From an uncultured Verrucomicrobiae bacterium (GTDB taxonomy: Bacteria; Verrucomicrobiota; Verrucomicrobiia; Chthoniobacterales; UBA10450), in the NCBI GenBank assembly GCA_963834385.1, contig CAWIBO010000003.1, forward strand, positions 384,001 to 448,000: a DNA stretch of 64,000 bases, in the 5' to 3' direction. Positions 41,962-58,108 of this stretch are shown in pieces (the first letter of the stretch is position 1; every line of letters starts with the position of its first letter). Position numbers and translations under genes: made by a program. The notes under the pieces are model-generated. The model did not search any database and was not told the origin of the DNA. It was given only the letters and a program-made list of their open reading frames with translations.

Positions 41962-42078
41962 CAAATCAGGGGAAGGCAAAAACGGGATTTTTCCCGCTCC
42001 ACAGTATCAGCGCTCTCTCGAAACGGAAGGGGCCGATGCCTTTTTTCCGTCACTTTGAGTCAGACGAAGAAGATTGAG

Positions 42079-42230
42079 GTCCGCAGATTACGCAGATGGA
42101 CGCAGATTTTGGGGGAGGTGCCGGCGGCGCGACGGTCGGTGGCGGGTCCGCTTCTCTCTTCCGTCATCCTGAGCGAAGCGAAGGACCTCCCATGCCAGCA
42201 CAACGCGACGCTTCCAGTTGCACCCTGGAG
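42079..42230 (+). repeat. Composite direct repeat, copy 1 (RCAGATT tandem + REP-like half element)
   Basis: CTTCCGTCATCCTGAGCGAAGCGAAGGACCTCCCATGCCAGCAC at 42158-42201 is identical to 42967-43010. Confidence 0.9.
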
Positions 42231-42826: not shown

Positions 42827-42889
42827 ACTCTCAATCCGATGTCGAGAAGAAGGAGGCGTGGCGATGCCGCGGAGCCTAACGAAGATGAA

Positions 42890-43040
42890 GTCCACAGATT
42901 ACGCAGATTGACACAGATTAGGGGGAGGTGCCGGCGGCGCAACGGCCGGCGCCGGAGCTGCTTTCCCTTCCGTCATCCTGAGCGAAGCGAAGGACCTCCC
43001 ATGCCAGCACCCGCAACGCCCCCAGTGTTACCTTGGAGGA
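42890..43040 (+). repeat. Composite direct repeat, copy 2
   Basis: Aligns with 42079-42230, including a 44-bp identical block. Confidence 0.9.
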
Positions 43041-43120
43041 CCCGATAGGCATAAAATGCGATAGCGAATGCAGCTCGCAGCGGAGAAGTTCCGCCACTGC
43101 GAAGGGTGCCCTTCCGAGGC

Positions 43121-43453
43121 TCAAGGTTTATCAATGGGAACCAGATCGACCATGCTGATCACCGCGTCCACGCGTCCCGTCTCCCGATGAATCCCAACCC
43201 GATAAATCTCCCCGGCTTGTAGAAGGAATCGGACAACAAAGATGGGGATGCTCCCACCCGATTCCGGTTCAATCGTTCCCTCCGTCACTTTGACGATGGT
43301 CGATTCGGGCAGCCTGTGCCCGTCGCGTTCGAGAGCCCCCTTGGCGATTCGAATGGCCTCACGCTGCGACACTGGTTGATGCCTGGTAAGCTGATCATCT
43401 TTGAAGGAGCAGCCCGCAACCAACAAAGTGACGACAAGAAAGAAACGTCTCAT
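43121..43453 (-). CDS. Hypothetical lipoprotein (PepSY-like pattern)
   Basis: VAGC lipobox; VSQREAIRIAK...YRVGIHRETGRV. Confidence 0.7.
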   Translation of the reverse strand: MRRFFLVVTLLVAGCSFKDDQLTRHQPVSQREAIRIAKGALERDGHRLPESTIVKVTEGTIEPESGGSIPIFVVRFLLQAGEIYRVGIHRETGRVDAVISMVDLVPIDKP

Positions 43454-43508
43454 GGGCCGGGAGCCGTTTTTCCTTTGTCCATTGGGAAGGGTTGACGTGA
43501 CTTTAGCC

Positions 43509-43566
43509 GAACGGAAGATCTCGGAGAGCGATTTTTCTTGGGTCGAGCCTTTGGAACCTTTTTGAC
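43509..43566. repeat. Imperfect direct repeat, copy 1
   Basis: ACGGAA...GCGATTT.TC.TGGGTCGAGCC...TTTGGAACCTTTTTGAC shared with 44253-44325. Confidence 0.75.
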
Positions 43567-43591
43567 CTCGGCGGTCTGCGTCCGGGCGCGG

Positions 43592-44128
43592 CTAAAGATC
43601 GCCGTATGCGCGGCCGGTATAATCTTCAAATTTAAAGCCGCTGCGCTCAGTGATCTTGCGCTGTGCTTTTAGAACAAATGTGAAAAGCAGGTGGCCACGG
43701 ATGCCACGCGCCGCCACCAGGCCATCGCCGGTGCCGAACGAATACGACTTCACGATTTCAAGACGCCGATCGTCGTAGCCTATCCAGAAGGGGAGGCGGA
43801 CGAAGCCCAAGTCGTTTTTGAGCTGGAAAAGCGCTGCTTTTACCGGTTCGTTTCCTTCCGAAAACTCGCCCAACGCCATGACAAACCACGCGATGTCAAC
43901 GATGGCGGGATGCTGTTCCCATGAGAGTGCGGGATGCGCATTTAAGTCGAGATGGGCTGCTGCGGCGGACTCACGCAGCCGAGTGACCGCGAGTTCCAGC
44001 CCGCCAAGGACCATCTCTTCGTCGTATCTGATATCGACCGACGTCGTGCCTTCCGCCTCAACAGCCCGAATCGGCGAGCTGCCTGCGAGGCAGAACAACA
44101 CAGCTATAACGACCTTCCTAGATGTCAT
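43592..44128 (-). CDS. Secreted hypothetical protein
   Basis: Signal-like MTSRKVVIAVLFCLAGSSPIRA. Confidence 0.55.
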   Translation of the reverse strand: MTSRKVVIAVLFCLAGSSPIRAVEAEGTTSVDIRYDEEMVLGGLELAVTRLRESAAAAHLDLNAHPALSWEQHPAIVDIAWFVMALGEFSEGNEPVKAALFQLKNDLGFVRLPFWIGYDDRRLEIVKSYSFGTGDGLVAARGIRGHLLFTFVLKAQRKITERSGFKFEDYTGRAYGDL

Positions 44129-44252
44129 CTGTATCTGCAGGTGCCATTCTCTACGGTGTAGCACTATCATGAGCAGGAGCAGGAGTCGCGGCAAAAGCCG
44201 CGGAGCCTACACGGTCCGCTACGTTCTTGTCATTTTCGGCTTTTCTTAAAAT

Positions 44253-44325
44253 GAAACGGAAAAACTGCGAAGGCGATTTCTCCTGGGTCGAGCCCTTGAA
44301 TCGACCCATTTGGAACCTTTTTGAC
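44253..44325. repeat. Imperfect direct repeat, copy 2, with hairpin
   Basis: Contains GGGTCGA-GCCCTTGAA-TCGACCC. Confidence 0.75.
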
Positions 44326-44377
44326 ATTCTGCTTAAATACCCGGCAAAACCGGACGCGAGATCCTGTTTTTCCAGGG

Positions 44378-46033
44378 TTACGGACCCTCGTTTGATACCC
44401 TTTTGACAGTTGGCGGCGAACATTGGTCCTCACTCGGCATCGCTATTAGACGCTCCAACGCTGTATAATGTCGATCAAGCCGCGGGTGTCTTGCGCGCAG
44501 TATTTTTCGAGTGCTCTTCCTGACACGGCGTCGTTCCCACCAGCTAATTTGAGAAACGCTGATCCGCATGAATTCGCGGCTGGCGATCTCACCGTCGCTG
44601 ATCTGCAGGCCGTCGTAGGACGTCGCTGTCAATGCCGGCAACACCGCTTTGAGCGACGCGCTGCCATTCTGCGATGGATGATAATATGCCATCCCGCGGA
44701 ATACTTCGAGCAAATCGAGAAAACGCCGCGACACTGCGCTGACCCACTGAGCGCACTCCGGGAAATACAACGCACAGTCGGCTAGTCTCTTGGCTTCGAA
44801 GTTCGTGTTGTAGCCAACGATGCTGCCGCGCTCGCCTAACAGCTCTCTGAGCTCAAGGAGGAACGCTGGTCGAGGATCGTCGTTGCCGTCGGCAAGAAAG
44901 CTGTGGTGCTCCACCCGCGCGCCTTTGCTTCTGATGATGTGGAGGGAGAATTGAAACGGGATCTGGGTGTACGGGCGGGACCGGTCGAATAGCGGAACAG
45001 CCGACTGGATTGTTTCGAAATCGAGGAAATGCAACGGATACTCGAGTCGCGACAGGAATTGTCTTATCGCTGCGCGATCTACGTGTGGCGTTCCGCTTCG
45101 GTGAGATGCGACCTGTCGAACCTGCGCGTCGGTTAGAACCATATCTGATGGCATGTCTTCGATTCGAAGAATCCCTCGAGCGAGCAGATCCCAAGGCCGG
45201 CTTTTTGCGTTCCGTAAATCGAACACGCTCGGTTTCGGGAGAAAAGCCCAGCACGATTCCATCAGCGAACAGTCATATGGGTCCGTGCAATGACGTGACA
45301 CCTTCACGTCCGGACATTCCGCTAAAGCCAAAACCGGTTTCATTTCTTCCACCTTTCCATGAACCGCCGGTAGCAGTGCGTTGATCGGGACGGTTACGTC
45401 AATTCGGGTTAGCAATTGATGCGGATTAATGTCGCCGGTCCGAATGTATTTTTTGTTCACCAACAGCAGGTAACAGTTCCTAATCGATAGTCCTGCGCCT
45501 TCGTAGACGTAGCGTTGGAAGGCGAGATCCTGGAGATAAACCTCTCTGAGATCATCTAAGTCTTCGGGGACTCCTGAGCTCTTTACCTCGATGACGTCCC
45601 AGCGCCCATCTGCCGTTGGAGCAAGAATGTCCGCTCTGCTAAAGCACCCGTTGTAAATGAATGAAGCTTCGAAGATCGCTTTACCTTGGCGCAGCGCATC
45701 GCGAGTCGCGCTAACGGGTTCGGCAAAGCCACCTATATCGCCAAGATCGACACCGCCAGGATATAGCTTCTTCGCCCACTGGCCGACTTTGTGGCCCTGA
45801 TCGAAAATGGCTTCCAAGGTGGCGTCAACCGGCGGAAGCAGAGCCTTGTTGTTATAATGAATCCAGAGCGCTTTCGGACACTGCAGGCCAACCAGATACT
45901 TTGTCTTCGATATTAACGGCGGCCCTTTGAGCGACGCCTCGTTTTCTAGAGCGAACCAGCCGGTAAGCAACCGACCTAGGGATAAAACAGCCGATCGCAT
46001 CATGACAAAGCCGCGAACTACTTGCCGAACCAA
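44378..46033 (-). CDS. DUF2779-type protein (PD-(D/E)XK/Cas4-like nuclease + RNase H-like domain); start and 3' end uncertain
   Basis: ISKTKY..GLQCPK, ADIL...IEVKSS, DLAFQ, C...C..C...CW, FLDFET, IPFQFSLH, GSASLKAVLP; YCAQDT lies in a shifted frame near the end. Confidence 0.85.
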   Translation of the reverse strand: MVRQVVRGFVMMRSAVLSLGRLLTGWFALENEASLKGPPLISKTKYLVGLQCPKALWIHYNNKALLPPVDATLEAIFDQGHKVGQWAKKLYPGGVDLGDIGGFAEPVSATRDALRQGKAIFEASFIYNGCFSRADILAPTADGRWDVIEVKSSGVPEDLDDLREVYLQDLAFQRYVYEGAGLSIRNCYLLLVNKKYIRTGDINPHQLLTRIDVTVPINALLPAVHGKVEEMKPVLALAECPDVKVSRHCTDPYDCSLMESCWAFLPKPSVFDLRNAKSRPWDLLARGILRIEDMPSDMVLTDAQVRQVASHRSGTPHVDRAAIRQFLSRLEYPLHFLDFETIQSAVPLFDRSRPYTQIPFQFSLHIIRSKGARVEHHSFLADGNDDPRPAFLLELRELLGERGSIVGYNTNFEAKRLADCALYFPECAQWVSAVSRRFLDLLEVFRGMAYYHPSQNGSASLKAVLPALTATSYDGLQISDGEIASREFMRISVSQISWWERRRVRKSTRKILRARHPRLDRHYTALERLIAMPSEDQCSPPTVKRVSNEGP

Positions 46034-46293
46034 TCCGTGATATCGAAAAAGACGCTTAACTCCTTCCCGTCCGGTCCCTGCAAGATGATTTCATCGATCT
46101 GACGACCCGCTTCGTTTTTGCGAGAACGCTGGCGGAGCTTCTGATGCCGCGGGAACTGCGCTTTTATCCACGCTTTTTCAGCGGCAACACCCTGCTGCTC
46201 GTTCTTTGCCTTTGGCAGCGTGATGTGAGCCGAAGCATCCGCGGCCCAATTGGGATCGATCATCCAGTTTTGTTGGTCGTCTTCTTCTAACAT
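46018..46293 (-). CDS. Hypothetical protein ending FFDITDWFGK
   Basis: 91-aa ORF; GVAAEKAW...FFDIT..FGK. Confidence 0.65.
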   Translation of the reverse strand: MLEEDDQQNWMIDPNWAADASAHITLPKAKNEQQGVAAEKAWIKAQFPRHQKLRQRSRKNEAGRQIDEIILQGPDGKELSVFFDITDWFGK

Positions 46294-46299
46294 TGTCTT

Positions 46300-46518
46300 T
46301 CAGCTGCGGTTCCGACCAGCCAGACTGCCCAGCCAAAGTCTGCGGTTCCGCGTCGAGTCCGAGGCAAGGCCGCTGATTTTGCGCTGAGCGTCGACAATCG
46401 CTTGGGCGTCCCGTTTGTCAGCGACCCAGGCGATTAATTTCTTTTGTGGCCCGACAATCGCCCACGGAAATCCATTCGGCGGATTAATCTGTGCTGCGTC
46501 AATTTTCCACTGATTCAT
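46300..46518 (-). CDS. Small hypothetical protein
   Basis: 72-aa ORF in a co-oriented string. Confidence 0.5.
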   Translation of the reverse strand: MNQWKIDAAQINPPNGFPWAIVGPQKKLIAWVADKRDAQAIVDAQRKISGLASDSTRNRRLWLGSLAGRNRS

Positions 46519-46597
46519 GTCCTTAAGCTTAGCCGCGAGAAGGCGCTAACTTCAGGACAAAGTTCGGGGACGGAATCCATCCAGCCATTAGTCGCCA

Positions 46598-47209
46598 TCA
46601 AATGTAATTTGCAATCGCATCGGCGATCTTGAATCGGCATCCAAGCGACTGAGCCCTTAACGGGTGAGCGGGCGCGGTTGATAGTGATGGGGGATTATAA
46701 ACTACTTTCGAAGTAGCGCCGTTTAAATAGAACGGACTCGGACGCGGACTGAGGGATGACAATGCAGCTAAAGCGGAAGCAGCCTGGCCCTTCGGAAAAT
46801 TACTCCCCCAAGCAAACCAACAAAATCTCGCGCTGCGATTGGGTGATTGGTCGCCTGGACACAGGCTTTTCAACGCAGCGTAAACATTTGAGTTGCATAA
46901 ATAAAAAAGGTTTAGAATCTCGACATAGTCTCCTATTTTCGGGCCTCCGCGCTTCGCCTTTAGTTGCGCTTCATTCAGGATTTTGATCACCGCGTGCATC
47001 GTGTTGTCTAGCGTCGGCCAAACGCCCCAAGTAGTCGTTGCGGCTACCGGCTTCTGTGTGCCGGGATTGCACATCCAAATGATACCGACACAATTACCCT
47101 GATGCTGCTGGTAACTTTGGATAGGCGTCGTGGCAGGCAGAAAGTACGCCCTAGTGTCCTTACGCGTGTGCGGCGGACCTACATCCCATTGTCCGTAAAC
47201 GAGCGCCAT
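46598..47209 (-). CDS. Hypothetical protein, DUF1643-like
   Basis: WMCNPG...DNT...ILNLF...FAWG...PAHPL motif order. Confidence 0.6.
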   Translation of the reverse strand: MALVYGQWDVGPPHTRKDTRAYFLPATTPIQSYQQHQGNCVGIIWMCNPGTQKPVAATTTWGVWPTLDNTMHAVIKILNEAQLKAKRGGPKIGDYVEILNLFYLCNSNVYAALKSLCPGDQSPNRSARFCWFAWGSNFPKGQAASALAALSSLSPRPSPFYLNGATSKVVYNPPSLSTAPAHPLRAQSLGCRFKIADAIANYI

Positions 47210-47223
47210 ATTCTTGAGCCGCT

Positions 47224-48270
47224 TTAACCCTTCTGAAGCAATTTTCGCAGCCGACGAAAATCGCCGGAATCCTTAAACCCGATCTTTGCGGCAACAAACT
47301 CATAGCGTTTGTCACCTTTCAATCCTTGTCGGCGCGCAAAGCGATCAGCGAGCTTTGCCTCTCGTTTAAGGCCGACTAGTTCGCGTCGGCCGATTGAAAA
47401 GCCTAGCCCTTGTCGGGCGATACCCCGTGCTCGATGTAGCTGCATCACTTTCGAAAAATCGAGGTCACGCTTCGGGTCCAAGCTGAGATATCCCGGAATG
47501 AACAATTGCGTTCCATACGGAGTAAAGACGACCGACGTTTTCAGCAGCAGTGGTGTGTCGTCCTCCATTCCCCACAGATAGTACTTCCAGCAAAGTAGGT
47601 CGAATAAGGCTTGGAAACGCGCGCCGTCATCGGTGAACTCGGCGCCCGGACCGCGTTCCCAATTCCGTTCTGGCATTAAGGAGCGATTGATTACTTTCTT
47701 CCGAGCGATCGATTGCGGGAAAGTTTGTTTGAGAAGGGCCCATTCGTTTCGAAAGTCTTCTGACTGCTCCAGATAGAATAGATACTCATCATACTTCTCC
47801 TGCGCCCTCAGGTAAAATTCGTAGCGCCCTTCATGCACCAGCGTTTCTGATTCTCGGATCACCCCCGGCGCGGCAACCTCCAGTCGATTGAAACCGCATC
47901 GACCGTCAGCGGCATTAAACTGAACAATCATTTCAGCGAGGAGGATCGCCGCGGGATCCGGCGAGGCTGAAGTGAGCGCGCTCTTCAAGTAGTTGGCGTA
48001 ATTTTCTGGAAACGCGGGGAAGGCGGATTCGCACTGCCAAAAAGCGTAACAGCACCAGCCTAGTGCTTCGGCCAGCAGCTCCACGTTGGGATCGTCATTT
48101 TTCGCCAGGACTTTCGGAACTCTTGCAAACAGAAATTCGATTAGGGATCGCGCCTCGGTCGAATCGACAAACGGTAGCGATTTTAGATGAGCGACGACTT
48201 TGGATCGCCATCCCGTTTTAGGGAGACCAAACCGATTCAACCATGTCGCCGCGAACGCCTGTTCACGCAT
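47224..48270 (-). CDS. Hypothetical protein (348 aa)
   Basis: Long ORF, basic C-terminus, no recognised family. Confidence 0.7.
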   Translation of the reverse strand: MREQAFAATWLNRFGLPKTGWRSKVVAHLKSLPFVDSTEARSLIEFLFARVPKVLAKNDDPNVELLAEALGWCCYAFWQCESAFPAFPENYANYLKSALTSASPDPAAILLAEMIVQFNAADGRCGFNRLEVAAPGVIRESETLVHEGRYEFYLRAQEKYDEYLFYLEQSEDFRNEWALLKQTFPQSIARKKVINRSLMPERNWERGPGAEFTDDGARFQALFDLLCWKYYLWGMEDDTPLLLKTSVVFTPYGTQLFIPGYLSLDPKRDLDFSKVMQLHRARGIARQGLGFSIGRRELVGLKREAKLADRFARRQGLKGDKRYEFVAAKIGFKDSGDFRRLRKLLQKG

Positions 48271-48361
48271 CAGTTACGTTATACGCGGCACGGCAGGAAA
48301 CGCGAAGGCTGAAGATTGGTCCCATACTCAGTCCTGAATTTCCTCTTCGACATCCAGTAAG

Positions 48362-49387
48362 TTGGCGGCGTTGAAAACGATTGGGCCAATCATAACCGCA
48401 CTAGATATCGGCCACTCGAAGTGCTGCATGGCCTGCGCCGAGGCAGACCCGCGCGGGTTTCTCCAGCTAATCGGAGTCGCCGAACGGTCATTCCTGATCG
48501 ATCCGCCCCAAGCGAACGCATCAGCCGATTTATTGCAGAGAACGATCGCCGATCTCGTTAGACATTTCGAGCAGAAACACGAAATTGTAATTCACACTGT
48601 TCAGCTGGCCGTCAACGGAAAGGACATTCGAGGCGAAACATTCGCCGATGCCGAGCAAGCGGCCATCCCCTTCGGGAACGAAATCATTCATCGGTTCGAT
48701 AGCTGCGGTCGCGAAGTTGATTGGTGGAATTTCGCGCAGGGACACATCATTCACGCGAAAAGAAGTTCGATCGAAGAGAAAATAAGGATCGCACGCCGCG
48801 CCGGTCTCCAGGTGAATCGACTAGTTCTCACTAGTTTGGCCAGCGCATTTGCCGTGACTAGATCGGCGGAACGCGACGGTCGGAATTGCCTGGTGATCGA
48901 TATTGGCAGTAGCAGTGCCGGCTATGTTTTATTTTACGAGGGCAGCATTGCAGCCAGCGGAGTCATCGAAGCCGGAGGACATCTAATCACCGCCGAAATT
49001 GCGTCTTCTCAAAATGTCTCGTGGGCAAAAGCGGAGCAACTAAAACTGGCCCCGCCCAATGACTCGGCAGAAAGCGAGATCATCGCGCGTCATTTGATTG
49101 AGCTTTTTTGCAATGTCGCTGAGAAGGTCCGCAGTGGGTTATCGAAGACTGGGTATGTCTACCTGACTGGCGGAACGAGTCGATTTCCAAACATCGAACT
49201 GATTGCCGCGGGAGTGTTCGATCGACCGGTTTATCGCGCTGCCGCGTTGAACTTCGTGGGCGAATGCGAGCCTACGCGACCGGAACAATCCACTGCGTTG
49301 GGGTTGCTAAAATACGCCGTGTCACACGGTAGCGTCCCGCGCAAAGAATGGCAGGCACGGCGCTGCACCAGGAACCCAGTTTTATGA
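48362..49387 (+). CDS. Divergent, shortened FtsA-like actin-fold protein
   Basis: ALDIGHSK, LASAFAV, VIDIGSSS, GGHLITAEIA, AEQLK, LTGGTS, STALGLL. Confidence 0.8.
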   Translation: MAALKTIGPIITALDIGHSKCCMACAEADPRGFLQLIGVAERSFLIDPPQANASADLLQRTIADLVRHFEQKHEIVIHTVQLAVNGKDIRGETFADAEQAAIPFGNEIIHRFDSCGREVDWWNFAQGHIIHAKRSSIEEKIRIARRAGLQVNRLVLTSLASAFAVTRSAERDGRNCLVIDIGSSSAGYVLFYEGSIAASGVIEAGGHLITAEIASSQNVSWAKAEQLKLAPPNDSAESEIIARHLIELFCNVAEKVRSGLSKTGYVYLTGGTSRFPNIELIAAGVFDRPVYRAAALNFVGECEPTRPEQSTALGLLKYAVSHGSVPRKEWQARRCTRNPVL

Positions 49388-50505
49388 AAACAACCCCTCA
49401 GCCAGAAATGAAAACCACACCTCTTGCGCTCACACACGGTGTCGTTACCACCCGATGGCCAGATCAGTATTCGAATGATCCATTCGCGATCGGAGCCACG
49501 CAAGGTTGGCATTCGATGTCCCGATCGGGGCGATGGAATGCCGCAAAAATGATGCATGATTTGCACGCAGCTTTAATTCACTCCCGCGCCGCTGATCGCA
49601 CAGGAGTCTCAAAAACCGGGAAGGTCTATTGGGGAACGCTAATCTTCGCCCCCGACAAAAGCCGTTATGTGGCTTTGCATCATTACGGGGATGAGATCTG
49701 GTTCCTTCGCGTTTGGGCGAATTCCGCCGTTGTCGCGGCCAGCGAATTCAACCGCTTGAGAAAGAGGTATCTCTTGGCCGATCGTGACGACGGCTCTGGA
49801 GAATTCTTCATTTTAACCCATGGAATGGCTGGACCAGATAAGCGTCGTATCAAGGTGCCGGAGCGGAAACTGAATGAAGCAGAATTACATCTGCACTATG
49901 GCGACGACTTTGTTGTTTGGCATACGCAATTGATGGAGCTAATCCGTACCCAAAAGACCGGTGTCACTATTCTGCAAGGACCGCCCGGGACCGGTAAAAC
50001 GAGCTACCTTCGCCATCTGCTGTTCGCAACGCAGAAAACGCATCGCTTTTACTATCTGCCGATCAGCGTTTATCCGATGCTCGTAGCACCGACATCAGTG
50101 GACTTCTGGATTGGCGAGAATGAGACAACCGAGTGCCTAACTAAAGTGGTCGTAATCGAAGACGCCGAAGCGCTCCTCATGCAGCGGGACAACGGCAACC
50201 AGGAATCGGTTTCTAATTTACTCAACATTGCAGACGGATTCCTCGGCGACTTTCTGAAACTGCACGTGATCTGTACCATCAACGCGCCGGTTGAGAAGCT
50301 GGACCCGGCGGTAACACGACCGGGGCGTCTGATTGCCTCACGCCAATTTCGTCGCCTAACAACTAGCGAGGCAATGCGCTTGGCAAACGCAAAAAATCTC
50401 AGGCTCGAGCCGCGCGAGGACTATTCCCTAGCCGAGATTTATAACGGTTCTGCCGCCCGGCTTGACGAATCTAATGATCGAACTCTAGGATTCTCCCCTC
50501 ATTAA
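49384..50505 (+). CDS. AAA+ ATPase
   Basis: GPPGTGKT, VVIEDAE, SNLLNIADG, LDPAVTRPGRL; ATGA overlap with the FtsA-like stop. Confidence 0.88.
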   Translation: MKTTPQPEMKTTPLALTHGVVTTRWPDQYSNDPFAIGATQGWHSMSRSGRWNAAKMMHDLHAALIHSRAADRTGVSKTGKVYWGTLIFAPDKSRYVALHHYGDEIWFLRVWANSAVVAASEFNRLRKRYLLADRDDGSGEFFILTHGMAGPDKRRIKVPERKLNEAELHLHYGDDFVVWHTQLMELIRTQKTGVTILQGPPGTGKTSYLRHLLFATQKTHRFYYLPISVYPMLVAPTSVDFWIGENETTECLTKVVVIEDAEALLMQRDNGNQESVSNLLNIADGFLGDFLKLHVICTINAPVEKLDPAVTRPGRLIASRQFRRLTTSEAMRLANAKNLRLEPREDYSLAEIYNGSAARLDESNDRTLGFSPH

Positions 50506-50523
50506 CCAGATGACTTCAATTCT

Positions 50524-50709
50524 ATGAAACAAGACAATCAGCATCCACCACGCAAAGGTGAGACCTCGGCCAAATCTGCCTCGGTCAAAAACGACAAACT
50601 AGCTGCCAACGTTCAAGCGAGCCTAGAGCAGTTAAAAAAAGACGTAAAAGCGGGCGATCGCAAAGCCGCTGAGTTTCAAAAGTTGCTAAATGCCTTTCGG
50701 AAACATTGA
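50524..50709 (+). CDS. Small hypothetical protein
   Basis: 61-aa ORF 18 nt after the ATPase. Confidence 0.5.
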   Translation: MKQDNQHPPRKGETSAKSASVKNDKLAANVQASLEQLKKDVKAGDRKAAEFQKLLNAFRKH

Positions 50710-50766
50710 AGTCGCGACGATGGATCAAGCATCTGCGAGCACACCCTTGTCTTGGCAGATTCCTAA

Positions 50767-51086
50767 ATGACTGATCTGGAATATCAACTACGCGTCAGCG
50801 AATTAGACGTTCGTGATAAAGAAGCGCGATTGAAAGAAGCGCGCACCCGGTTCGATACCACTGCAGCTAAAGGTCGATCTGAGGTGCAGCTAAAGGTCGA
50901 TCTGAGGTCGAAAAAGCCAAAGCAGATCTCAGCAAGATTGAAGCGGAAACTATCGCGGCTTACGAAAAGGCCAAGCAGGACTTGGAGCGCGCACAGATAG
51001 ATTTGGATCGCGAGAAGTGCGGTCTTGAATATGCACGCGCGAACCTCGCCCGGGGATCGGATCATAAATCTCCGACTCAAGAGTAA
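50767..51086 (+). pseudogene. Coiled-coil ORF frameshifted by a 23-bp tandem duplication
   Basis: TGCAGCTAAAGGTCGATCTGAGG at 50862-50884 and 50885-50907; removing one copy gives a 98-aa ORF ending at TAA 51086. Confidence 0.65.
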
Positions 51087-51450
51087 TGATGAATTTTGAT
51101 TTGCCGCATGGCTATTCGTCTACGCCTTGACCCGTTGCCAGCCTGCGACGTGCGCCGGAACAAAATGCGGCGTTTGAATCCACCGGGAATTGGCATCTTT
51201 TGGCGCCGACGGCGGGCGCTGGCGGATCTGTGGTGTCGCGGGACGCGGTCATTTTCGCTCGGTTTTCGACAGGCAGATGTTCCTGCTGGTCTCGAGTGAT
51301 CATTTTAACCGGAAGAAGTTCGTCCGACCCTCATCAATTTACGGAATCACTACGACAACATCTGGATGATTGGTTCTAAGATGTGCTCGAGAATACCGAG
51401 GATTAACTGTTTAGGCCTAACCAGCCTGAGTTTTCGTATTACAGAAATCC

Positions 51451-51524
51451 CGGAGCCTACGGGGCTCGAACCCGCAACCTCTGCCGTGACAGGGCAGCGC
51501 TCTAACCAATTGAGCTAAGGCTCC
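51451..51524 (-). tRNA. tRNA-Asp (GTC anticodon), CCA not encoded
   Basis: GGAGCCT-TAGCTCAATTGGTTAGAGC-G-CTGCC-CTGTCAC-GGCAG...GGTTCGAGCC...AGGCTCC-G. Confidence 0.96.
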
Positions 51525-54078: not shown

Positions 54079-55755
54079 GTGAGTCAGGAACACGACGAGG
54101 GAATTTCCCCGGCCGGACGGCCGAAGACCGTGCTGGAGGCGGTTGACCGTCTCCTGGTTTCGCTGCCGGAAAACGACCCGGTGCGGACCGAGCTGGCGGC
54201 GCTGCGCGAGGAGGTGGCCGGCCAGGAGGAGATCATCGGCGAAGCGCGGCAGGTGATCGAAAAGCTGGAGCAGGTGATCAAGAAAGTGACCTCGCCGGCC
54301 AACCGGATCGGGACGTTCCTCGGCGCGGTCGGCCGCGACACCGCGCACATTGTCGTCGGCGGCTCCGATTATTTTTGCAACATCGATCCGCGCCTGCCGC
54401 GGCGGAGCCTGCGCAAGGGGACGCGCGTCCTCGTCAACGAAGCCTACGTCATTGTCGGTGATCTCGGCTACGAGACGGCCGGTCCGGTGGCGCGGGTGAC
54501 CGAGGTGCTTGGCTCCGAGCGTCTGCGGGTGGGCTCGGAGCAGGGGCTGCAATCGGTGGTGCTGGAGCGGTCCGACCGGCTGGAGGGTGTGGCGGTAAAA
54601 GTGGCCGACGAGGTGCGAGTCGATCCCGGTTTCCGGATGGCGCTCGAGGTCATGGCGCAGGGCAAAGCGCAGCAGCATTTCCTGGATGCGGTGCCGGAGT
54701 TGCCCTGGGAAAAGGTGGGCGGGCAGGAGGCGGCTTTGCAGGCGATTCGCGACGCCATCGAGTTGCCGCTTTTGCACCCGGAACTCTTCGAGAAGTTCGA
54801 TCATGCCACGCCCAAGGGTTTTCTCCTGCACGGCCCGCCGGGTTGCGGCAAGACCCTGATCGGCAAAGCCACGGCCTATAACCTGACGCGGCAGCTCCGG
54901 GAAAAGACGGGCGCCGACATGACGGAATATTTCATGCACGTGAAAGGCCCGGAAGTGCTCAACATGTGGGTGGGGGAATCCGAGCGCATGGTCCGCGAGA
55001 TCTTTGCCACCGCGCGCGAGAAAAGCCGGGAGGGATTCCTGCCTTTCCTCTTCATTGACGAAGCCGAGAGCATTCTGGGAACCCGGCGCGCCTCGCGTTT
55101 CTCCAACATTCTTTCCACGCTTGTGCCGATGTTCTGCGCCGAGATGGACGGGATCGATTCGCTGCATGAGGTGGTGATCATCCTGGCCTCGAATCGGGCT
55201 GACCTGATCGACCCGGCCATCCTGCGCCCGGGCCGGATCGACCGAAAGATTCGGGTGCGTCGGCCGGACAAGGCAGGGGCGCGCGCGATTTATCGGATCT
55301 ATCTGACGGATCGGCTGCCCTACGAAGGAGTGCTGGCGAAAGAAGGGAAGGGGATCGGGCCGGCCCTCGATCGGCTGGTGGAGCGCTTTGTGGACTGGCA
55401 GTTTGCGCGGCGGGACGAGAACCGGTTTTTGGAGGTCACGCTGCGGAGCGGACGCAAGGAAGCGCTTTATCGGAGCGATCTGTTGAGCGGCGCGCTCATT
55501 GCCTCCGTGGTGGAACGGGCCAAGGCCTACGCGATCAAGCGGGCCATCGCGACGGGGAACGAGGAGGGCATCAGCGAGGCCGATTTGCAGGCTTCGTTTC
55601 GAGCCGAGTTCGTCGAGAACGATATTTTTCCGCCGACTGATATCACGGAGGACTGGCTGAAGCTGATCGACTACGAGCCCGAGAACGTGGTCAAGGTCGC
55701 GCCGGTCCGGCCGGCGGGTGCGCGTCGGCGGGAACAGCCTTCCGCCGTGATCTAA
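54079..55755 (+). CDS. arc: Proteasome-associated AAA ATPase (ARC/Mpa-like)
   Basis: N-terminal coiled coil + OB region, DAIELP, GPPGCGKTLIGKA, VKGPEVLN.WVGESER, FIDE, IDPAILRPGR, SGA. Confidence 0.9.
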   Translation: MSQEHDEGISPAGRPKTVLEAVDRLLVSLPENDPVRTELAALREEVAGQEEIIGEARQVIEKLEQVIKKVTSPANRIGTFLGAVGRDTAHIVVGGSDYFCNIDPRLPRRSLRKGTRVLVNEAYVIVGDLGYETAGPVARVTEVLGSERLRVGSEQGLQSVVLERSDRLEGVAVKVADEVRVDPGFRMALEVMAQGKAQQHFLDAVPELPWEKVGGQEAALQAIRDAIELPLLHPELFEKFDHATPKGFLLHGPPGCGKTLIGKATAYNLTRQLREKTGADMTEYFMHVKGPEVLNMWVGESERMVREIFATAREKSREGFLPFLFIDEAESILGTRRASRFSNILSTLVPMFCAEMDGIDSLHEVVIILASNRADLIDPAILRPGRIDRKIRVRRPDKAGARAIYRIYLTDRLPYEGVLAKEGKGIGPALDRLVERFVDWQFARRDENRFLEVTLRSGRKEALYRSDLLSGALIASVVERAKAYAIKRAIATGNEEGISEADLQASFRAEFVENDIFPPTDITEDWLKLIDYEPENVVKVAPVRPAGARRREQPSAVI

Positions 55756-56631: not shown

Positions 56632-58108
56632 ATGAAAAGCGTTTTCGGGCTGGAGACGGAGTATGGGATCACGGTGGCGGGCGCCGAGTCGGAAATCGAC
56701 GTGGTGGCGGAGTCGATCGCGCTGGTCCGGAGCTACACTGAGCACGGAGCGCACATGAAGTGGGATTACGAACTGGAGGATCCGCACCAGGACGCCCGCG
56801 GGTTCCGCGCGCGGGAGCTGCTCCAGGACACGGACGAATCGGCCTACTACGAAGTGGACCGGCGGCGCGCGCTCACTTTCGAGGAGATCAAGAGCGACCT
56901 CGTGCTCTCCAACGGCGCCCGTTTTTACAACGATCATGCGCACCCGGAATATTCCACGCCGGAATGCAGCTCGCTGCGCGAGTTGGTGGCCCAGGACAAG
57001 GCGGGCGAACGCATCCTGGCCGAATGCGCGCGGCGGCGGCAAATCCATCTGCCCGGAAGGCCGCGCGCTCCGCCTCTACAAGAACAACACGGACTTCGTC
57101 GGGCACAGCTACGGCTGCCACGACAACTACCTGGTGGCCCGCGCGGTTCCCTGGAACGATCTCGTGGCGGGCATTCTTCCGTTTCTCGTCACCCGCCAGA
57201 TCTTCGCCGGCGCGGGAAAAATGGGCGTGGAATCGGAGAGCGCGGCCGGCCAGCCTGGTCTTTACCAGATCGCGCAGCGTTCGGATTTCTTCAGCGTCCT
57301 CGTGAGCATCGATACCATGAACCGGCGGCCGCTGGTGAACACGCGGGACGAGCCGCATGCCGACCCGGCGAAATACCGGCGGTTCCACGTGATCATTGGC
57401 GACGCCAACATGAGCGAGTGGGCCACGGCGATGAAAGTGGGGACCACCGCGCTCATTTTGGAGCTGATCGAGCGGGGAGAAGTCCCGGCGGTGGAGCTGG
57501 CCCAGCCGATCGAGGCCACACGGTCGATCAGCCGCGACCAGGATCATCAATGGATCGTGGAGCTGGCGGACGGCCGGAAAATTTCGGCGGTTGATCTGCA
57601 GCGGCTTTACCTGGCCGCGGCGCAGCGTCTGCCGGCGGAATCGATGGCGGAGCAGGGATGGATTCTCCAGGAATGGGAGAGCGTCCTGAACGATTTGGAC
57701 GATGACCCGACGAAAACCCGGGACCGGGTGGACTGGGCGGCGAAAAAAGAACTGCTCTCCGCCCTGCGCGAGGAGGAGAGACTGGAGTGGAGCGACCCGT
57801 GGCTGCAGGCGATCGACCTGGAGTATCACAACATTGACCCGGAGAGCGGGCTGGCGAGTGAACTGACCAGGCAGGGGTCGCTCCGGCGGCTCGTGACGGA
57901 GGAGGAAATCAAGGCGGCCATCTTCAATCCGCCCGAGACCACGCGCGCCTTCTTTCGTGGACGGGCCGTGGCGCAGTTCAATTCGCGGATCGAATCGATC
58001 CAGTGGGACGAGATCGTGTTTGCCGCAAAAGGTGGAAGCCGGCGCATAGCCCTCCCAGAGCCTGGCGCGAGCTACCGCGAGATGCTGGAGGAGATCAGGA
58101 CCAGCTGA
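56632..58108 (+). CDS. dop: Dop-like depupylase/deamidase (PafA/Dop family); apparent frameshift near 57055
   Basis: FGLETEYGI, Dop-loop WDY...[58 protein letters not shown]. Confidence 0.88.

Follow-up and report, generated by a model that had tools for sequence, protein, structure and literature searches.

A minimised FtsA paralogue from verrucomicrobial genomic islands and its BCS1-like AAA+ neighbour

The short FtsA gene and its island

As a core protein of cell division, FtsA is normally encoded by a single copy. We analysed a 64,000-nucleotide stretch of DNA from an uncultured Verrucomicrobiae bacterium (assembly GCA_963834385.1, contig CAWIBO010000003.1, positions 384,001 to 448,000; hereafter the window), in which a gene at 48362..49387 on the + strand, with a TTG start at 48362 or 48371, encodes a minimised FtsA-derived actin-fold protein of 341 amino acids (aa), which we call short FtsA. 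Its stop codon overlaps the start codon of a gene for a 373-aa BCS1-like classical AAA+ ATPase (49384..50505, +), the two sharing an ATGA at 49384-49387. An earlier note on this DNA had described an FtsA-fold open reading frame (ORF) coupled to a AAA gene in this way, and the ORF coordinates and a match to the Pfam FtsA profile (55.2 bits, cut-off 31.8) bear the description out. Short FtsA is a real and apparently undescribed FtsA variant in a recurrent pair with one clade of ATPases; no description of such a paralogue or pair was found in the open-access literature, searched by titles and the beginnings of abstracts, with most subscription papers and supplements outside the search.

The genome also carries a canonical 403-aa ftsA on another contig (G000:C2:591044-592255), between ftsQ- and ftsZ-like ORFs (ftsQ-ftsA-ftsZ, G000:C2:589549-593610), a copy whose presence the note had wanted confirmed. 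The low-GC tRNA island that the note had proposed also held up: GC content in 500-bp windows over 43001-51500 is 0.48-0.57 compared with 0.63-0.64 for the contigs, and GC at third codon positions is 0.59 and 0.56 at the locus compared with 0.84 in the host ftsA. A tRNA-Asp(GTC) gene at 51451..51524 (-) turns its 3' end toward the island and is the likely integration site. A 10-bp direct copy of that 3' end at 44201..44210 makes a weak att-like left boundary; such a copy was reached in 22 of 2000 shuffles, and the genome holds three. No integrase was found in the genome with queries from G011 and G237, the integrase of G011 being a by-eye assignment with no Pfam match.

Both small downstream ORFs that the note had listed are present, the first 61 aa long (50524..50709, +) and the second, which looks coiled-coil by eye, at 50767-51000 (+). 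The second lies beyond 50709, where the module had been said to end, and a direct repeat of 24 nt (50862/50885) puts it out of frame, the disrupted ORF spanning 50767..51070. In G011, a second genome with a short FtsA, it is intact and 92 aa long; this ORF has a single homologue, on a contig that matches no short-FtsA contig in bp.

Ancestry, selection and remodelled surfaces

Short FtsA descends from FtsA and has the FtsA fold, yet it is not a canonical FtsA. The predicted model reached a mean predicted local distance difference test score (pLDDT) of 92.8 when built from a 138-row alignment dominated by ordinary FtsA, while a 5-sequence alignment gave only 37.9. The model superimposes on E. 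coli FtsA with Z 36.9 and a root-mean-square deviation of 2.2 over 305 residues, and its top matches are all FtsA (Z 30-37); PilM (29.3 and 26.2), EutJ (24.5) and MreB (23.2) score lower, so that the comparison with FtsA, PilM and MreB that the note had called for places FtsA nearest. With canonical FtsA (TIGR01174; E. coli 7Q6D, V. maritimus 7Q6F; the host copy) the protein has in common the fold, the phosphate-1, phosphate-2 and adenosine motifs and the AExxK helix, and an IP..H stretch is common to it, the host FtsA and related FtsAs. It is ∼60 aa smaller, its SHS2 or 1C subdomain is remodelled, the 2B hairpin and the amphipathic tail are absent, R300 and D242 are not kept, and the gene is coupled to a AAA gene outside the cluster of division and cell-wall genes (dcw). 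An ordinary FtsA was rejected on six canonical features that fail, namely the TIGR01174 score (106.3 bits, under the equivalog cut-off of 175.85), 1C, the 2B hairpin, R300/D242, the tail and dcw position. Matches in the Atlas were to generic FtsA/PilM clusters.

PilM (2YCH, 5EOU) and the Amuc_1101 PilM-like family likewise have an FtsA-type fold without a membrane helix. A PilM identity was rejected, as structure and profiles rank PilM clearly under FtsA (TIGR01175 22.5 bits; NF045709 37 of 650), and no pilN/O/P-like ORFs were recognised near the gene. EutJ (3H1Q) and minimal actin-fold chaperone-like proteins, which are small, soluble and used outside the cytoskeleton, offer a functional analogy for a repurposed module. 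EutJ differs in its separate origin; EutJ profiles score 31-38 bits against cut-offs of 152-182, and no eut genes were recognised.

Seven further full-length homologues, 40-75% identical, were found (P0002, P0003, P0004, P0009, P0010, P0158 and the G011 copy), together with two fragments, P0159 and P0011, the latter 99% identical to P0158. The eight full-length members form one clade on a long stem (support 100/100) with common 1C and 2B-hairpin deletions and no membrane helix, and within it G011, P0004 and P0009 form a subclade (100/99). When 159 alignment rows were checked for the two regions, 141 had both; the remaining 18 comprised the 8 rows of the family, some fragments, and paralogues that were shortened independently and still have the hairpin. 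These last, P0030, P0082, P0112 and P0115 (also P0020 and P0060), are FtsA paralogues with most of 1C deleted on their own account. Their 2B hairpin and H8 Arg look kept, and they suit the idea of interference with division put forward in the note better than the present family does; three of them (P0082, P0112 and P0115) group with support close to verrucomicrobial FtsA, and the first two of these start, by eye, with RRxF twin-arginine-like stretches.

A decaying ftsA pseudogene might account for the long stem branch, which implies fast change, for a nonsynonymous rate above that of two neighbours, and for the fragments P0011 and P0159 and the frameshifted neighbouring ORF. We regard this explanation as next to excluded: the same deletions recur in the seven further full-length open frames, which are 40-75% identical, the family has invariant residues of its own, and the proportion of nonsynonymous differences between the window and G011 copies (pN 0.36) is far under the synonymous one (pS 0.79, saturated), with codon-position identities of 0.59/0.68/0.35. 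Short FtsA is, by these codon comparisons, under purifying selection. The note had allowed that the deletions might be unique to this copy; they recur in 8/8 members with selection retained, and its minimised FtsA outside dcw proved to be a conserved paralogue that is neither PilM nor decaying.

The family is an old module of Verrucomicrobiota, rarely found and carried on islands. With its own genome counted each time, short FtsA was found in 2/355 genomes of the taxonomic family and, in sampled genomes, in 1/401 of the class and 2/401 of the order; the unpublished genomes G002, G007 and G014 entered the tallies only. Four clusters of the protein family stood at the top of the 50% library, and a GTDB pattern scan gave one locus, L018, which has the same sequence as L014 and was counted once. 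Metagenome and viral pattern matches (L019, L020, L075) were rejected as spurious, a 40-aa match inside what is by eye a Mu-type-capsid-like gene. No short FtsA was found in annotated phages, and a plasmid collection yielded 13 matches, 22-30% identical, of which the four annotated ones are labelled ftsA.

We compared residue positions in E. coli numbering against up to 130 other FtsA rows. Compared with the host FtsA, 1C of short FtsA is shorter by 22+7+5 aa and the 2B hairpin by 26 aa. The earlier claims of a shortened 1C, a lost 2B hairpin and no amphipathic tail were all correct: the 34 aa missing from 1C are accompanied by the absence of any PF02491 (SHS2_FTSA) match in 8/8 members, the R286-bearing hairpin is a gap in 8/8, and an amphipathic tail (moment of at least 0.6 with at least four hydrophobic residues) occurs in 0/8 as against 56% of 129 other FtsAs, the host copy scoring 0.81. 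It is this C-terminal helix that binds the membrane, according to passages of PMC7613929 and PMC5832921. The family has also lost the 1A SxGxxKG loop and replaced G42, G46, D137, P145 and G204 (host numbering; 1A loop, 1C and the end of a 2A helix), which are 93-98% conserved elsewhere.

R300, D242 and E303 of E. coli FtsA are residues that we take to bind the FtsZ tail, although no passage supporting this was found in the literature. The note had read the protein as a soluble FtsZ sequesterer or decoy that would bind the FtsZ tail and strip FtsZ from the membrane, and had considered the Arg-containing helix of the FtsZ-binding region kept. The Arg of its IIARHL stretch is R243, which is not conserved in the family and lies one residue ahead of the R300 equivalent, H244; the FtsZ-binding Arg is therefore not kept. 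Across the family the R300 position reads H, H, N, Q, Q, H, A and F, with Arg in 0/8 members compared with 120/130 other FtsAs; the D242 position is E or A in 8/8 and D in 121/130 others, and the E303 position is acidic in only 5/8. The model does contain helices H6 and H8, E247 is acidic in 5/8 members, and a passage of PMC8897712 indicates that E. coli FtsA without its membrane helix still binds FtsZ. Yet a sequesterer should preserve the FtsZ-binding surface best, and we hold this reading to be highly improbable.

Another possibility is a division poison, which would enter the filaments of host FtsA through a remaining longitudinal face, cap or destabilise them and arrest division (abortive infection or dormancy), with the AAA protein removing or releasing it. 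The helix equivalent to E201/R202 is kept as E170 and R171, as is the AExxK helix; lateral contact in FtsA filaments is almost wholly a matter of 1C, in a passage of PMC7613929, and E. coli subunits unable to make lateral contacts are dominant negative, in a passage of PMC11323482. We nevertheless find such a poison improbable, given that glycines and motifs found in 75-98% of other FtsAs have gone from the 1A loop, from 1C and from the end of the 2A helix, as has the R286 hairpin, that there is no membrane helix to reach the septum, and that G011 retains an intact gene without the ATPase.

The nucleotide core is present in 8/8 members: D/E15, G17, K20, D180, G182 and TGGxS (T269-G271), along with E225 in 8/8 and K228 in 7/8. 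E14 and D210 are phosphate-motif residues of FtsA in a passage of PMC10213515. T17 is replaced by H, L or Q and the GGTTD phosphate-2 motif is altered; because both the phosphate-1 Thr and GGTTD are changed, short FtsA is probably a poor ATPase, and its hydrolysis may be weak. New family invariants have appeared at C21, C25, D29-P30 (in a DPxG hairpin), W121-W122-F124 (a WWxF in the 1C remnant), R167, Y267 and Y291.

The AAA+ ATPase and recurrence of the pair

The ATPase has a Walker A GPPGTGKT, a Walker B VIEDAE, a DPAVTRPGR second region of homology and an N-terminal domain; at least 90% of 99 homologues retain the Walker A, Walker B and RPGR residues. It matches PF00004 at 39.9 bits and BCS1 structures in the PDB weakly, and it resembles proteins in 100 phage records, one of them annotated as BCS1-domain. 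The Atlas clusters found at 0.99 contain AAA, DUF5925 occurs in 10-95% of their members, and they are often viral; the window ATPase itself has no Pfam match to DUF5925, for which the literature search, confined to open access with most subscription papers outside, found no paper. No N-terminal membrane anchor is evident by eye. With the BCS1-like and DUF5925-associated AAAs of bacteria and jumbo phages the protein has in common the classical AAA module, the EDAE Walker B and the RPGR fingers; unlike those proteins generally, it belongs to a distinct clade tied to short FtsA, for which the pattern scan found no viral locus. A passage of PMC7824862 describes BCS1 as binding folded proteins and phage BCS1 orthologues as proposed to handle them.

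We looked for the pair elsewhere by comparing contigs among the 120 of 215 AAA matches listed. Of the five AAA homologues nearest to the window ATPase, three agree with a short-FtsA contig in source, contig number and bp: P0161 (84%, JGI, 1 contig, 3753 bp) matches P0002, P0162 (64%, Logan, 2 contigs, 7083 bp) matches P0010, and P0165 (62%, ENA, 1 contig, 6219 bp) matches P0011. The chance of a match per contig bp value is ∼0.5-1% against the 119 listed AAAs, and the next nearest ATPases (P0163, P0164, P0166) have no short FtsA on a contig of matching bp. P0161, P0162, P0165 and the window ATPase form an exclusive clade (99/98 with 19 rows; 99 with 42 rows). Thirteen residues are specific to this clade, and 9 of these fall in the N-terminal half. 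The two proteins diverge together, at 39-44% identity for the FtsA-like protein and 56-65% for the AAA protein, with one close pair at 75% and 84%. Linkage thus stands at 4/8 members (one seen, three inferred), with one member seen unlinked and three without a match among the AAAs listed.

A possible client of the ATPase or independent cargo

We put the probability at roughly 40% that short FtsA is a soluble, monomeric nucleotide switch, a folded client of its dedicated AAA+ ring, with a conflict-type output. In sequence, a duplicated ftsA has given up the surfaces that serve division, from the lateral surface of 1C and the 2B hairpin to the 1A loop, the Arg of the FtsZ helix and the membrane helix, while retaining the actin-fold nucleotide pocket and gaining the new invariant patches (the DPxG hairpin, WWxF, R167 and Y291). 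The product would act as a switch or adaptor that binds nucleotide and is probably a poor ATPase; the BCS1-like ring may use its own N-terminal domain to bind this folded client and load, reset or release it. The output would most likely be anti-phage or anti-element, exerted with the neighbouring small genes and a nuclease cassette, and not septation; one subclade would have lost or replaced the ATPase.

Several observations weigh against the client reading. The three further linkages are inferred from contig matches and not from DNA, so that adjacency, order and strand are known for the window only. P0003, P0004 and P0009 have no matched AAA, and neither does the fragment P0159 on its 1.35-Mb contig, in each case among the 120 of 215 listed; the P0003 contig is too short to hold both genes whole. 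In G011 short FtsA overlaps by ATGA a gene for a 153-aa fusion protein in place of the ATPase, and the sole AAA match there, 43% and partial, is on another contig of a genome that is 97% complete, the short-FtsA contig ending 190 bp past the operon. The wider AAA family has homologues in 14/355 other genomes, 13 without short FtsA plus G011, where the two are unlinked. The new invariant patches also occur in members without a linked ATPase, and they are therefore not AAA-specific. Finally, PADLOC 2.0, whose 2023 library covers described systems only, matched neither the FtsA-like protein nor the small ORFs. The co-occurrence check that the note had set thus came out divided, the ATPase lineage going with 4/8 members and being missing beside the G011 copy: the ATPase is not an obligatory partner, and the G011/P0004/P0009 subclade looks like a case of ATPase loss or replacement, the root of the tree being uncertain.

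The same facts could mean that the two genes are co-inherited with no functional link, as cargo of one element lineage, with the FtsA derivative acting alone or with the small downstream genes. This would fit the G011 locus, where another gene takes the ATGA overlap, and the 61-aa, 92-aa and 348-aa neighbours common to both loci read. It would also fit the wider AAA family: at the 14 AAA loci no FtsA-like gene came up in an hmmsearch that used the short-FtsA family profile, three of these loci (L065, L066, L069) have distant ATPase homologues directly upstream of RtcB RNA-ligase genes, and the wider AAA family is therefore promiscuous cargo. Against mere cargo, the pair persists over 39-44% FtsA-like divergence while neighbours shuffle, and all four members of the AAA clade have short FtsA, three by matched contigs. 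We consider co-inheritance alone doubtful, though a serious alternative.

Both short-FtsA loci read, in the window and in G011, are islands outside the dcw cluster, and they are syntenic, with a divergent 348-aa gene, a DUF1643-like gene, a DUF2779 gene and two small ORFs. In the window the 348-aa gene, of no known family, is at 47224..48270 (-) as the first gene of the DUF1643-like/DUF2779 cassette. Between it and short FtsA a 37-bp intergenic element (48302..48338) is found at the same position in G011, 84% identical, and is a candidate shared promoter or operator; a promoter scan gave a result at chance level. A 91-aa gene lies at 46018..46293 (-), and its G011 homologue stands directly behind short FtsA, in the place the ATPase has here. 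It and the 61-aa ORF, 4 kb apart on opposite strands in the window, form a single 153-aa fused gene in G011 (L014 532-993) and in P0282, the 61-aa ORF corresponding to the C-terminal part.

Other features of the neighbourhood were noted in passing. At three of the 14 AAA loci without short FtsA (L058, L059, L060), a distance of 2-3 kb separates the AAA homologue from a homologue of the 348-aa gene, which hints at a shared element backbone. An element of ∼95 bp at the left edge of the island (44316-44414), with a 44-bp partial copy at 43510-43553, occurs twice in G011 (L068 8626-8719 and 11322-11422; 87% and 83%) as direct repeats that flank a 2.6-kb segment with a distant AAA homologue, and these are possibly cassette-boundary repeats. 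Two repeats of ∼160 bp, 85% identical (42068-42229 and 42880-43037), lie on either side of genes for a 73-aa protein and a HicB-like protein, and short copies of their cores are scattered across the genome. Farther right, by eye, are a proteasome-ATPase-like AAA ORF (54079-55755) and a PafA/Dop-like ORF split over 56632-58108.

Only the island context, namely the DUF2779 gene, which has a weak Cas4 match, and the nearby HicB gene, suggests a defence or conflict role; the ATPase had weak PADLOC 2.0 matches, mostly short and in the P-loop region. Type III CBASS (cyclic-oligonucleotide-based antiphage signalling system) offers a parallel in HORMA-TRIP13/Pch2, where the genes of a switch-like adaptor and of an AAA+ remodeller dedicated to it stand together within a defence island. 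The likeness is one of analogy only: the TRIP13 profile match is a 20-residue Walker A, the adaptor is not homologous, and no cyclase or effector was found. A bolder version, which we think rather unlikely, is that the domesticated FtsA would be a hydrolysis-poor sensor of a nucleotide or phage protein, armed and reset by the BCS1-like ring, which would treat it as a folded client, and signalling to the small proteins or the DUF2779 cassette. No description of a cytoskeletal actin homologue as such a switch was found in the open-access literature searched.

Whatever its output, the family represents an FtsA that was duplicated onto mobile islands, trimmed to its nucleotide-binding core and long kept under selection; its ancestry, deletions, co-inheritance and kept and lost motifs are all evident at the level of sequence. 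It may serve as a natural "minimal FtsA", in which nucleotide binding would be separated from polymerisation, membrane binding and FtsZ binding, and it is a possible client of BCS1-like ATPases from bacteria and phages, the role of which is no more than proposed in a passage of PMC7824862. The lost contacts, the kept nucleotide pocket and the pairing with an ATPase together suggest that a division protein was recycled for a new job, and, in the rather unlikely event that the sensor version is true, these islands would carry an undescribed class of conflict system built around a domesticated FtsA switch.

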